DNA of 56,142 nt, the filler included, from Deltaproteobacteria bacterium (lineage in GTDB: Bacteria > Myxococcota > JACRCW01): the NCBI GenBank assembly GCA_016218805.1. It is 4 parts of 3 records of this genome, joined end to end, with 100 filler letters (N's around TTAATTAATTAA, not from the genome) between each part and the next. Parts side by side here need not be neighbours in the genome. Positions count along the whole stretch, not along the records: positions 46,033 to 56,142 come from JACRCW010000003.1; 3 more parts are not named here. One strand, written 5' to 3'. Under the pieces are notes generated by a model. That model was given only the letters and a program-made list of their open reading frames with translations. It was not told where the DNA came from and did no database searches. The stretch's first letter is position 1, and each line of letters starts with the position of its first letter. This document shows positions 12,081-56,142 of this stretch, one piece after another. Made by a program: the position numbers and the translations under genes.

Positions 12081-12180
12081 NNNNNNNNNNNNNNNNNNNN
12101 NNNNNNNNNNNNNNNNNNNNNNNNTTAATTAATTAANNNNNNNNNNNNNNNNNNNNNNNNNNNNNNNNNNNNNNNNNNNN
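12081..12180. other. Assembly linker (N-run with TTAATTAATTAA)
   Basis: 44 N + six-frame stop + 44 N. Confidence 0.98.
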
Positions 12181-37094: not shown

Positions 37095-37194
37095 NNNNNN
37101 NNNNNNNNNNNNNNNNNNNNNNNNNNNNNNNNNNNNNNTTAATTAATTAANNNNNNNNNNNNNNNNNNNNNNNNNNNNNNNNNNNNNNNNNNNN
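37095..37194. other. Assembly linker
   Basis: N-run with TTAATTAATTAA. Confidence 0.98.
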
Positions 37195-45460: not shown

Positions 45461-45782
45461 CACCGGCCCCACCCGGAGGCACCACCAGCGGGCCCCGGCA
45501 CATCACCGGCACGCCCCCCGGCCAACACCAGCAGGCCCTGGAAGCACACCAGCACTCCCCCGACGCGTCACCAGCGCGCCCGGAAACCCACACCAGCACC
45601 TGCCGGGCAGCCTCACGGGTGCGCTGGTGTCGGATCCCGGGCGCGCTGGGGTCGGGTCCGGGGCGCGCCGGGAGGTGGTCCCCCGCGCGCTGGCAACGCT
45701 CGGCGGGGGCGCCGGATACGTTCGCGAGCATGCTGGCGCCGCCGCCCGGGCGTGCTGGAGCGCGCGGGACCCCGCGCCGGGG
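45461..45782. repeat. Non-coding inverted array with 21-22 nt period
   Basis: CACC(A/G)GC at 45461, 45483, 45504, 45526, 45547, 45569, 45591; inverse GC(T/C)GG at 45623, 45645, 45667, 45689, 45711, 45732, 45754, 45776. Confidence 0.8.
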
Positions 45783-45792
45783 TATGATCTTT

Positions 45793-45932
45793 GGCCCTCC
45801 TGCACTCCGAATGGGTTGAAATTGACGCATGGGATCACGAGAGCATGGTTGGCAGCGGCGGGCAGAGTCCGCCGAACTTGGCATAGGCCAGCGCAATGAG
45901 GGCTTCGGCGGAGTGGAATCCGAAGGCAGTCC
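45793..45932 (-). mobile_element. ISL3-family IS right end with transposase C-terminus
   Basis: Minus strand encodes TAFGFHSAEALIALAYAKFGGLCPPLPTMLS* (stop at 45835-45837), resembling ISL3 transposase C-termini; terminal GGCCCTCC...TGGGT resembles an ISL3 IR. Confidence 0.8.
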
Positions 45933-46032
45933 NNNNNNNNNNNNNNNNNNNNNNNNNNNNNNNNNNNNNNNNNNNNTTAATTAATTAANNNNNNNNNNNN
46001 NNNNNNNNNNNNNNNNNNNNNNNNNNNNNNNN
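45933..46032. other. Assembly linker
   Basis: N-run with TTAATTAATTAA. Confidence 0.98.
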
Positions 46033-50256: not shown

Positions 50257-50817
50257 ATGGTCACCCAGCCCTCGCCCGTGCTGTTCACCTACGCGGAGTA
50301 TTCGCTGATCCCGCCGGACGGGAAGCGCTGGGAACTCATTGAGGGGGACTTTGAAGTGAACCCGGCACCCGTGACGATGCACCAGGTCCACGCGCTGCGA
50401 CTTGCGCGCACGCTGCTGACGCAACTGGAGGACATGCGACTCGGCGAGGTCTTTGTGGCGCCGTTTGACGTGATCCTGGGTCCGCACAACGTGGTGGAGC
50501 CTGACCTGGTGGTCATCTCCGCGGCGCACAAGGACCGCGTCAGTGACCGCGGCCTGGAGGGCATCCCGGACATCATTGTGGAGATCCTGTCGCAGAACCG
50601 CGCGTATGATGAGGTCCTCAAGCGTGCGCTGTATGAGAAACACGGGATTCCTGAGTACTGGATTGTCGACGGTGCCGCGGCCACGGTCACCCAGTTCGTG
50701 CTGCAGGAAGGGCGCTACACCGTCCACGCGGTGCGTGGGCGCGAGGACACGCTGACCTCCCCGCAGTTCAACGGCCGCGTCCAGGTGGCGCTGTCCTACG
50801 TGTTTGCACCGCGCTGA
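50257..50817 (+). CDS. Uma2 family PD-(D/E)XK endonuclease
   Basis: RWELIEG, EPDLVV, PDIIVEILS, K..LY...GIPEYWIVD. Confidence 0.9.
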   Translation: MVTQPSPVLFTYAEYSLIPPDGKRWELIEGDFEVNPAPVTMHQVHALRLARTLLTQLEDMRLGEVFVAPFDVILGPHNVVEPDLVVISAAHKDRVSDRGLEGIPDIIVEILSQNRAYDEVLKRALYEKHGIPEYWIVDGAAATVTQFVLQEGRYTVHAVRGREDTLTSPQFNGRVQVALSYVFAPR

Positions 50818-52948: not shown

Positions 52949-53635
52949 TCAGCAGGTGCGCGCAAGCGCCTGCATGAACCGCGGTGTGTTCCTGAGGAGT
53001 TCCACCACGGCCGCGAATGAGGTGCCTGCCGCCGCGACCTCCTCGGCGGGGAAGTCCTTCGCCAACTCCTCGTTGTGGCGGTCCGCAAGGCAGCACGCGC
53101 CCTTGGTGTCCTCCACTTCATCAAGGAGGGCCCGGTCCGCCTTCCACTGGGAGAACAACTCCAGGTGCCGGCCGCACGGCCCGTCCCGGCACAACCGGCT
53201 CGCGGTGTCCGTCGCCTGGTAGAGCCAAGCCTCCATCTCAAAGTGCGGAATCACCGGCAGCAGTCCGTCAAGGACCGCGGGGTCTTTGCCACTGGCGTCG
53301 AGCACCCGCCGCACCCGGTCGCGGAACCGCTCCCGGAAGTGGCGCGCGTTCTCGCTTTCCTTCCGCTCTGACCATCGGCATTCGCCGTCCACGTGCATCA
53401 ACACGAAGTGACCCAGAGCGAGCCGCGTGGCGATTTCCCGCCGCAGTGTGATGGCCTCGGGCGCGTTGGACTTCCAGTGGCTGCCCCACCCGCCCGTTGG
53501 GCGTTCGGGCAGGTCAAGCTGGACCTTCTGGGTCTGGCAGCGCGGGTCCACGCAGCGGCACAGCTTCCGTGCCAGGTGCCGCATGACCGGATGCGCGGCG
53601 GCGGCGGAGTCCTCCGTCACCAGCAGGATCCTCAC
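52949..53635 (-). CDS. DUF4276/TOPRIM-like putative nuclease partner of ATPase
   Basis: N-terminal ILLVTED, HVDGE, PHFEMEAWLY; GTGA overlap with the ATPase. Confidence 0.65.
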   Translation of the reverse strand: MRILLVTEDSAAAAHPVMRHLARKLCRCVDPRCQTQKVQLDLPERPTGGWGSHWKSNAPEAITLRREIATRLALGHFVLMHVDGECRWSERKESENARHFRERFRDRVRRVLDASGKDPAVLDGLLPVIPHFEMEAWLYQATDTASRLCRDGPCGRHLELFSQWKADRALLDEVEDTKGACCLADRHNEELAKDFPAEEVAAAGTSFAAVVELLRNTPRFMQALARTC

Positions 53636-54786
53636 CACAGGTCGCGCGCTATCAGGATCTCGCTGAGCTGCTGGATTCCCACTTCGCGCGCCTCGAACAC
53701 GTCCCGGGCCGTGTCCGCGTCCACGTTTTGCCATCGCAGGGTCTCGCCGTCTCGCTTGCAGATGATGAAGGTCTTTTGCGCTTCCTGCGGGGAGCGCACC
53801 GGCACGTGGTCCAGCAGGAGCGAGTTCTGACTCGTCAGGAACGCCTGCCGGTCCCCGATCTCGTCGAGGCACGCGCGGATCCAGCTGTGGTGCATCCCGT
53901 TCACCAACTCGTCCGCGATAATCACGTCGGAACAGGCGGAGTAGTAGAAGAACGCCAGCAGGCGCTTCTGGCCGTAGCTGAGATGGCTCTCTGGGAACTG
54001 GCGAAACCCGTCGTCGAGGACGAACTTGAGTCCCTTGTAGCGTGGCCTGCCATGGTCCGCGTCCCACCAGACCATGCTCATGGACGCGTCCACCAAGCCC
54101 AGCAAAGGCATCAGTTTCCGCAGGAACGCGGGCACGTCAGTACGCGCGAGGCGGATGTCGTCGGCCGTCACCGCGGCGGCATGTCCCTTGAGGGCAGCGC
54201 GTGCGTCTTCCGGCAACAGAAGCCAGCTCCAAGGCCGCTCCTTCTCAACCTCCAGGCGCGGCGCAAGCTCGACGTCCCGCCCCGACATGCGGGTGAAGAA
54301 CTCCAATGACTCGTCGAAACGCAACTGCAGCGGCAAGGTGTCGGCGGGCTCCGGCCACAGCCCCGAATGGGTTAGGCACATTGCCAACCACCCCACCTTG
54401 AAGGGACGGTCGGCCGGCTGGGACTCAAGGTGCCACTCTTTCGGTTCGCCCTGGGGGCCCGTCCAGGTGAGAGCCACCTTCCACGACACCTCGGTCGTTA
54501 CGCCGCCCAGCAATCCCGCCACGTCTCTCCCTGCCACGCGGGCATTGCTGATGCTGACATCCGCGCGCGCGCTCCCATGGTGAACCCGGTAGGAGATGTC
54601 GAACTCCTCCTTCTGCAGTGGACCGAATTCCCCACACACCGCCATCGCCAGCAGGTCCAACAGCGTGGTCTTGCCCGTCGCGTTGAGCCCCAGCAGCACA
54701 TTGATGCCGTCGTTGAACTCCAGCCGCGTCCCCGGCGCCACGTTGCGGAACTTGCGAATCTCCATCGACTCCAGGCGCGCCTTCAT
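53632..54786 (-). CDS. ABC-type (AAA_21/OLD-like) ATPase
   Basis: Walker A GLNATGKT, signature LSYGQKR, Walker B IIADE, LTSQN; GAGGTG RBS. Confidence 0.88.
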   Translation of the reverse strand: MKARLESMEIRKFRNVAPGTRLEFNDGINVLLGLNATGKTTLLDLLAMAVCGEFGPLQKEEFDISYRVHHGSARADVSISNARVAGRDVAGLLGGVTTEVSWKVALTWTGPQGEPKEWHLESQPADRPFKVGWLAMCLTHSGLWPEPADTLPLQLRFDESLEFFTRMSGRDVELAPRLEVEKERPWSWLLLPEDARAALKGHAAAVTADDIRLARTDVPAFLRKLMPLLGLVDASMSMVWWDADHGRPRYKGLKFVLDDGFRQFPESHLSYGQKRLLAFFYYSACSDVIIADELVNGMHHSWIRACLDEIGDRQAFLTSQNSLLLDHVPVRSPQEAQKTFIICKRDGETLRWQNVDADTARDVFEAREVGIQQLSEILIARDLW

Positions 54787-54823
54787 CGGTCACCTCGCGG
54801 GTCCCAACTACCACGTGGCGGAC

Positions 54824-55034
54824 CCATGACACTGCCGGACATTCACTTTGACACCCCCGTTACACACCCTTGACGGTGCCATTGCATACCCTTGACGGTG
54901 CCCGCGCATACCCCAGACACCACCCCAGCAGACATGGACACCCCCCAAGCAGCACCTGACACCCCCCGTACACCGTGTCAGGGGGGTGTCAGGGGCGTTG
55001 TCCGGCACTGTCAGGGCTTGCTTGAGGGGTGTCC
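54824..55034. repeat. Non-coding inverted array with 11/22 nt period
   Basis: 11-nt units (TGACACCCCCG, TTACACACCCT, TGACGGTGCCA, TTGCATACCCT, TGACGGTGCCC...) plus inverted arms including a perfect 13-bp stem 54955-54967/54981-54993. Confidence 0.8.
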
Positions 55035-55042
55035 AGCGCGCG

Positions 55043-55924
55043 TCAGGCGTGCAGCGCGTCCGGGTCCACCACGTCACCGGTGGCGTGTTCCACCGCTTCT
55101 TCGTAGCTGCCGCCGCGCGTCTTGGTCTGGTTGGGGAAGGTCTTGTCCAGGCGCCAGCGGCGTTGGGCGTCCGGGTCATCCCCGGCCATGGCGCGGCCCC
55201 ACCCGCTGAGCCACTGCATGTACTCGTACAAGCACTTCACCAGCTTGCGGCGGTAGGCCTGCGCCTTGTTGCGTTCCAGGCCGGTCTTGAGGCGCAGGCC
55301 CGCCACCGTCCCCAGCGTGTCCACGGCGGTCTTCAGCGCCGCAATGTGCTGCCGGGCCACGGCAGGCTGGTCAAACTCGTCAACAATCTCCGTGGCCGCT
55401 TTCACCACCAACAGGCCCGCCCCGTAGAGCGCGCGCGGGCTGCCCAGCGCGCGGCGGATGTCAAAAACGCGCAGCGGGATCCCCACGGCGGACGCCCGCA
55501 GCGCCAGCTTGTTGCGCGCGGCCACCACGGCCCGCATGGCCACCAGCGCGTCCTCGGAGATGACCTCAGTGCGGGCACCAATGAGACGCGTGCCCACGCC
55601 GTGGTTCTGGAACTCATTGAGGAACTCCTGAAGCACCTCCAGGTGTTTGCGGGTGACCGGCATCTTCTCGCGAGCGAACGACGCGAGGTCTTCGTCGACG
55701 TTCTCCACCATCTCGCCCCCGTCCAGGTACAGCAGGCTGGGCGCGTACGGGAGGCGGATGCCGTAGTCGGGGGTGGCGTCCACTTCGCGGAGCATGATGG
55801 CGTGCGGCGTGCCACTGCGGACGTCCCACTTGCGCGCCTTCTGGGTGGTGCGGCTGTTGTTGGCGCGCGTGGCAACGGTGTTGCGGACGGAGGTCTTCTT
55901 CGCCTGTTTCTTCCTGGGTGCCAT
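55043..55924 (-). CDS. Hypothetical alpha-helical protein with basic N-terminus
   Basis: GGGAGG RBS; GC3-rich codons; MAPRKKQAKK start; amphipathic helices; no family recognised. Confidence 0.8.
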   Translation of the reverse strand: MAPRKKQAKKTSVRNTVATRANNSRTTQKARKWDVRSGTPHAIMLREVDATPDYGIRLPYAPSLLYLDGGEMVENVDEDLASFAREKMPVTRKHLEVLQEFLNEFQNHGVGTRLIGARTEVISEDALVAMRAVVAARNKLALRASAVGIPLRVFDIRRALGSPRALYGAGLLVVKAATEIVDEFDQPAVARQHIAALKTAVDTLGTVAGLRLKTGLERNKAQAYRRKLVKCLYEYMQWLSGWGRAMAGDDPDAQRRWRLDKTFPNQTKTRGGSYEEAVEHATGDVVDPDALHA

Positions 55925-56142
55925 GACTTCCCTCCCGTTGAGGTTGTGACGACGGCAATTACGGGACGCCCGGCGGGGTGCGCAAGTTCCTGAGCCCGCC
56001 GCGGGTGTGATCGCCCATGGTTGTGGTCCCTGCCGGTGGGGCAGCCACAGGATCCCAAAGAGCCGTTGTGGTGTGGCACAGCCGCCCCGGCTGTGCCGGT
56101 GCATAGCGACGTCACGGGTGTCCCGCTGGCGTCCCGGCCGGG

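Follow-up and report, generated by a model that had tools for sequence, protein, structure and literature searches.

Introduction

In REP/REPIN-RAYT systems, a gene-linked copy of a repeat is accompanied by dispersed gene-less repeats near gene ends, and the repeat is built on one conserved hairpin. Bacterial tandem repeats of 20-23 nt, constant in size and variable in sequence, were reported by Subirana and Messeguer without an explanation in the available text of their paper (PMC8161180). BrickBuilt, a MITE-minisatellite of Porphyromonas gingivalis, is described in the accessible part of its report as an intergenic, dispersed and imperfect ~23-nt repeat with predicted long stem-loops, which forms one sequence family and has terminal inverted repeats as well as a leader and a tail that are not repetitive (PMC4596501). 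KfrA of plasmid RA3 is an alpha-helical protein that adjoins an array of repeated DNA sites; according to the available text it contains a helix-turn-helix, and the sites that it binds on the plasmid are five 9-bp repeats covering the promoter of its own gene (PMC7783346). Fold-back periodic clusters have also been described as Evo-PIN clusters #8,581 and #156,623, for which the available part of the preprint gives periods of 8 and 7, no co-localised protein, and hosts in Chloroflexota and Patescibacteriota (bioRxiv 10.64898/2026.10.21.760802).

Here we describe a two-armed periodic array (54824-55035) that adjoins P0001, a gene for an uncharacterised all-helical protein (55043-55924, minus strand). 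Coordinates refer to the window, the whole stretch of DNA analysed (56,142 nt, filler included). As in REP/REPIN-RAYT, there are a gene-linked copy and dispersed gene-less copies, and the genome holds RAYT-like genes; unlike in those systems, four RAYT-like loci stand against 49 unrelated array families, and the units are phased tandem cores. P0001 itself is no HUH tyrosine transposase of the RAYT type and has no NCBIfam match, whereas an ORF on contig C54 passes the cut-off of NF047646. The repeats share with those of PMC8161180, as far as its available text describes them, a non-coding nature, a length near two DNA turns, several species-specific sequence families per genome and a short core: units here measure 20-23 nt (periods 22 and 21; genome mean 21.5), and 84 arrays fall into 49 families. 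The period is 21-22 nt, compared with 20-21 nt in the Bacillus repeats of that paper, whose available text names neither a partner gene nor an orphan pattern and uses "inverted" once, in its introduction. Likeness to BrickBuilt is confined to the dispersed intergenic repeat and its stem-loops, since the arrays form 49 families, lack a leader and tail and have a linked gene. Like KfrA, P0001 is a helical protein next to repeated DNA; unlike KfrA, it has no detected N-terminal helix-turn-helix, its array lies 3' of the gene instead of over its promoter, and no match to it was found in plasmids or phages. The fold-back form resembles the Evo-PIN clusters, which differ in period, protein partner and host as given above, and section 2.3 of that preprint names no 21-22 period class.

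No paper on a link between a gene and such arrays was found in a literature search with most subscription papers outside its reach. Novel in this analysis are the families of P0001 and P0053, the pattern of one gene per repeat family within a genome, and the lack of covariation between protein and array. Fixed-length, free-sequence repeats gain candidate partners among proteins, about one for each repeat family, and natural controls exist in the orphan copies, the flipped arrays and the near-identical proteins whose arrays differ; with these, the questions of what sets the period and by what means the repeat spreads can be tested directly on a single small gene and an array of 200 bp.

Structure of the array

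Most of the space that separates P0001 from an AAA ATPase gene is taken up by the array, which begins ~10 nt behind the P0001 stop codon and is intergenic by a hexamer gene model. Its long arm (54824-54973, plus strand) carries [T/G/A]GAC[A/G] cores at 54827, 54837, 54849, 54871, 54893, 54915, 54936 and 54957, in steps of 10-11 or 21-22 nt and separated by C-run spacers; TRF reports tandem periods of 22 and 21 in this arm, with 2.2-2.5 copies per tract. The array is thus degenerate and might escape the SATFIND rule of PMC8161180, which asks for at least four regular repeats. The short inverted arm (54975-55035, minus strand) has reverse cores at 54976, 54987, 54999, 55009 and 55030, and a further reverse core at 55041 includes the P0001 stop codon. 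At the centre lies a perfect 13-bp hairpin (54955-54993).

The sequence-only reading had described seven consecutive 11-mers from 54849, a 15-mer at 54866 that recurs at 54888, and three pairings of the right arm, namely 54955-67/54981-93 (13/13), 54936-61/55009-34 (22/26) and 54824-41/54999-55016 (16/18), the first two differing by a 22-nt slip; all of these details proved exact. The periodicity is borne out by a self-match rate of 0.55 at lag 22, compared with ~0.2-0.35 at most other lags and 0.37-0.44 at lags 11, 21, 44 and 66. An ungapped stem scan found 13 stems, against a mean of 3.1 (maximum 8) in 200 dinucleotide shuffles, and the stem centres follow one another in steps of 10-11, 21-22 or 32 nt, with a single step of 1. 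Slipped pairing is an automatic consequence of an inverted arm in a periodic array, which makes the multi-register pairing a by-product. The array folds about equally well on both strands. Its folding z is -3.3 for RNA of the minus strand and -2.9 for DNA of the plus strand. A second sample of the same study yielded a contig with the identical sequence over 54113-55295, so the array is no assembly artefact; this identity and the excess of stems over shuffles rule out chance or artefact as its origin.

The array is non-coding, and one minus-strand frame is open both here and in the other copy of the array on contig C60, which leaves a short peptide within strict possibility. Neither a sigma-70-like promoter nor, within the array, a terminator-like site was found, and Rfam 15 gives 0 matches in the window at gathering score. 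A C-rich Rho-loading tract was considered and rejected, as the arrays show no strand skew (C exceeds G in 19/34 arrays near stops). DNA homologs of the array were found in its own genome only, among 301 genomes searched, and a degenerate array motif had no match in viral contigs.

The P0001 protein

P0001 encodes 293 aa with a basic N-terminal tail and is the partner gene of the array. Its structural model is all-helical (pLDDT 74.5, with low confidence at the N-terminus). No significant match was found in Pfam, NCBIfam or PADLOC, no catalytic or DNA-binding domain and no helix-turn-helix family match was detected, and the protein is absent from the phages and plasmids searched. Foldseek against the PDB gave no match at E<=0.001, and the model matches generic four-helix bundles only, Avd-like ones among them: 2gsc (Z 8.4, rmsd 2.2, 81 aligned) and 4dwl (Z 7.5, rmsd 2.6, 83 aligned) are tied with unrelated bundles. 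The nearest named cluster in the Atlas is DUF6261 for both P0001 (0.85) and P0053 (0.81), which we take at lead level only; 0/39 members of A4 match DUF6261 (PF19775) above cut-off, and 1/19 other helical neighbours matches it below cut-off. A family profile built for P0001 finds 46 representatives and has matches in 17/401 genomes of the phylum, four of these matches being weak.

A gene-less copy of the array

The sole other copy in the genome, on C60, is 78% identical over 176 nt without indels. It follows an unrelated gene at a distance of 6 nt from the stop, and no P0001-type gene is present there. Homology between the two copies is limited to the array itself, from stop+3 to stop+178, with none of the distinct terminal inverted repeats, leader and tail of a MITE, and no target-site duplication is visible at the array flanks, nor was an empty site seen. 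The 39 substitutions are spread evenly over codon positions (15/14/10), and on this lack of bias a coding repeat was rejected. Better conservation of cores than of spacers was tried as a further pattern and dropped (8/55 versus 31/121 changed, p=0.12). Two changes are compensatory, one in the central hairpin and one in the outer stem, which in this comparison of two sequences only is not above the shuffle control (246/500 shuffles).

Arrays behind P0001-family genes

The sequence-only reading had predicted similar arrays 3' of homologs of 55043-55924, and the prediction held. An array of 21-22 nt lies within 350 nt of the stop at 14/27 P0001-family loci, spread over 10 genomes and with mostly unrelated cores, and at two further loci an array lies upstream of the gene. 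The background in the P0001 genome is 83/4081 genes, or 69/849 genes with a gap of at least 150 nt (2-8%). The 27 loci scored come from 13 genomes and one metagenome contig, after exclusion of four weak matches, one match without a locus and duplicates; one of them (L033) is a fragment, and related genomes are non-independent samples. No downstream array was found at 13/27 loci, including that of the closest relative, L017 (score 1.0). The array at L001 is a clear fold-back (z -5.9), and most other arrays of the family are direct. For 3/4 arrays tested in other genomes, a further copy was found elsewhere, at a locus that shows no trace of the gene.

Array sequence and protein sequence are uncoupled in this family. 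Proteins that are 87% identical carry different arrays at the same locus, and the C144 array is the reverse complement of the arrays behind the G345 and G214 homologs. Among four close proteins, for which the frameshift in G331 limited the comparison to the C-terminal two thirds, 0 columns track array type and 37 track genus, and protein-array covariation was accordingly rejected for the part compared.

At L028 and L031, the stop codon of the gene forms the start of a TGAGGA core, and at P0001 that of TGAC; TGA-containing cores at the stop are visible here, in G239 and in G331; growth of arrays from the stop codon as a rule was rejected for G000, where the exact stop 5-mer recurs in 1/39 cases versus 0.10 under the null. 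At L001:3107-4236, the P0001 homolog is split by an insertion sequence with two transposase-like ORFs, and the fold-back array is still found behind the C-terminal piece. At L027, L028 and L030 (G289, G239 and G214), the gene and its array adjoin ORFs, upstream and on the opposite strand, which by eye we take to be Cas4/Cas1-like; in G289 and G239, a presumably Cas3-like ORF, also judged by eye, follows downstream of gene and array.

Census of arrays in the genome

Scores for 21/22/43 periodicity exceed the best null score in 103/2395 intergenic regions, and 83 arrays are strong (score of at least 30). In 81 arrays the cores are spaced by 21 nt (105 times), 22 nt (133), 20 nt (6) or 23 nt (1), with a mean of 21.5. 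A strict classifier assigned these 81 arrays to direct only (66), two-armed (6), palindromic cores (5) and interleaved (4); the two-armed count is a lower bound, because the array at 45461 was not called two-armed. Arrays sit within 60 nt of a stop in 34/83 cases and within 60 nt of a start in 7/83, and divergent gaps are depleted in arrays (9/68 versus 397/1067).

The 83 arrays and the C60 copy form 49 sequence families, of which 20 are multi-copy. In 16/20 multi-copy families, exactly one copy lies beside a hand-picked helical gene (permutation p=0.00065), that is, a helical hypothetical of 150-310 aa within 350 nt of the array, chosen by eye; under a blind composition rule the same pattern appears in 12/20 families and is not significant (p=0.11). 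A first enrichment rule gave no enrichment (2/28, p=0.18) and missed most candidates, and a retuned rule gave 18/165 versus 37/1812, later rules having been tuned on the candidates. No hand-picked helical neighbour accompanies 61/84 arrays. Among 31 orphan arrays, 3 are near a remnant or an incomplete copy of the partner gene, and for 9 a contig end is no more than 350 nt away. Array-linked helical genes also occur in broken or partial form at G000:C164:51883-52352, C76:12194-12316, C97:20646-20933 and C44:72745-73074, which suggests frequent duplication and decay.

The CCAGC-core family and P0053

A second array in the window (45461-45782) has CCAGC cores. The window is stitched from contigs by N linkers (12081-12180, 37095-37194 and 45933-46032, all non-biological joins), and as the array at 54824 lies on contig C167 and that at 45461 on C158, their closeness is meaningless. 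The 45461 family has three copies, the others on C141 and C75, and the C141 copy lies upstream of a helical gene, P0053. Both intact P0053 orthologs found in 301 genomes have two-armed 21-22-nt arrays upstream, with the same core at L082 and another core at L083. The 45461 copy ends 141 nt from the contig end, on the side where the gene is expected, and is therefore a candidate orphan only. Another multi-copy repeat, at 45793-45932 and 1-140, breaks the assembly at many contig ends.

P0053 has no significant match in Pfam, NCBIfam or PADLOC. Its model matches 4dwl with Z 7.7 (rmsd 3.5, 90 aligned), a value that, like those of P0001, lies within generic helical-bundle noise. The helix order is similar in the two proteins; a profile comparison gave an hhalign probability of 9.9%, too weak to indicate homology of P0001 and P0053 or a single family of helical partners.

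From the shared architecture and unrelated cores of the two arrays in the window, the sequence-only reading had surmised a family defined by geometry. The period is indeed conserved across unrelated cores, at the 27 loci and among the P0053 orthologs; the inverted arm and the multi-register pairing, in contrast, are missing from most arrays (66/81 are direct only). What is conserved is geometry and not sequence, and the inverted arm is optional.

Proposed origin of the arrays

The arrays are linked to a gene, hold a fixed period while their sequence turns over fast, occur as gene-less copies at unrelated loci and prefer gene ends. We tentatively propose, with slightly less than even confidence, that the array is the DNA half of a mobile two-part module, helical gene plus phased array, which sheds orphan arrays. 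The module would comprise a helical-bundle gene of 150-310 aa and short cores ~21.5 nt apart, with the array on the 3' side in the P0001 family and on the 5' side in the P0053 family. The protein or a trans-acting partner would engage the double-stranded array by its pitch, without reading bases, all cores lying on one face of the DNA every two turns; such engagement would hold the period while slippage rewrites the unit. Template switching at near-palindromic cores (TGACA/TGTCA) may create an arm or reverse it, and the fold-back of this array as well as the matching changes in its two arms could have arisen in this way. New intergenic sites would receive copies of the array, in most cases without the gene. 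A period kept amid changes of sequence and orientation fits this pitch-dependent engagement of the duplex better, in what is a plausible though not yet a probable judgement, than an operator, neutral satellites or an RNA hairpin.

An operator or centromere-like platform would have each helical protein read its own core and polymerise along phased direct and inverted sites, like KfrA, with the orphans as distant sites. One gene per array family, the two-turn pitch of the arrays, the basic N-terminal tails of the helical proteins and the short, often near-palindromic cores would suit such a platform. We consider it unlikely, because array sequence does not follow the protein in the four close homologs, which argues against sequence-specific reading; moreover, the arrays of P0001 genes lie behind the stop and not over the promoter, and no match to a helix-turn-helix or other DNA-binding family was found.

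Neutral satellites would be 21-22-nt products of replication or repair slippage that gather in insertion hot spots of small mobile elements (RAYT repeats, Uma2, AAA genes and helical genes), with the protein non-causal. The many arrays lacking a helical neighbour, the depletion of divergent promoter gaps, as expected of tolerated insertions, and the other small repeats beside several helical genes agree with this, as do the constant-size repeats known from many bacterial groups in the available text of PMC8161180. On the other hand, each family has its array on a fixed side of the gene (3' for P0001, 5' for P0053), which stays the same from genome to genome despite sequence change, and dispersed copies of 70-95% identity are not explained by slippage alone, which makes a purely neutral origin improbable as well.

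Least probable is an RNA element. In this view the transcript would extend at its 3' end through the array, which would fold (11 bp per A-form turn); an Avd-like helical protein would bind it, and it would either determine mRNA stability or be copied by way of RNA. The excess of arrays near stops over starts, the two compensatory changes, the strong L001 fold-back and the presence of Avd and related four-helix bundles among the structural matches of both proteins (Z 6-8.4) speak for it, against which the inverted arm is absent in most arrays, both strands fold about equally, covariation is not above control, the Z values lie within bundle noise, P0053-type arrays lie upstream of the gene and Rfam finds nothing in the window.

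Beyond the two-part module with its pitch-dependent engagement, the array-linked helical proteins might, as an unlikely extension, form an undescribed superfamily of selfish-element proteins, possibly Avd-like, that measure two helical turns of nucleic acid. Next to the gene that encodes it, each would write or rewrite a phased array, whatever the sequence, and would seed copies without the gene across the chromosome. If so, the constant-size 20-23-nt repeats of bacteria, so far unexplained, would derive from this superfamily.

Neighbouring genes and repeats

Downstream of the array lies an AAA_21 (AbiEii-like) ATPase gene (53632-54786, minus strand), a neighbour and no more than a candidate part of the module, followed by a gene with weak similarity to DUF4276, below cut-off (52949-53620, minus strand). 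A Uma2 gene (50257-50817) is on the same contig as the array and the ATPase, and genes that by eye look like ATPase, Uma2 and HNH genes are neighbours of the P0001-family loci L005, L006 and L008.

On the other side, 78 nt upstream of P0001, is a cut-off copy (56003-56142, minus strand) of a multi-copy repeat of ~225 bp with 9-bp terminal inverted ends. A full copy (G000:C10:5841-6066) has an internal palindrome, and many contig ends carry the repeat. On C54 a diverged copy serves as leader to a RAYT transposase gene, that of the ORF over the NF047646 cut-off. This RAYT-leader repeat stands upstream of both P0001 and its C10 paralog; nothing was found that ties RAYT to the arrays. The repeat adjoins five helical genes (C167, C10, C31, C99 and C54), and its end, GGGTGTGA, resembles GGGTGTCA of the array. 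In G032, both DUF6261 genes (L069:756-1162 and L071:876-1124) have tandem repeats 3', of 88 and 86 nt, which equal four times a period of 21.5-22 nt.
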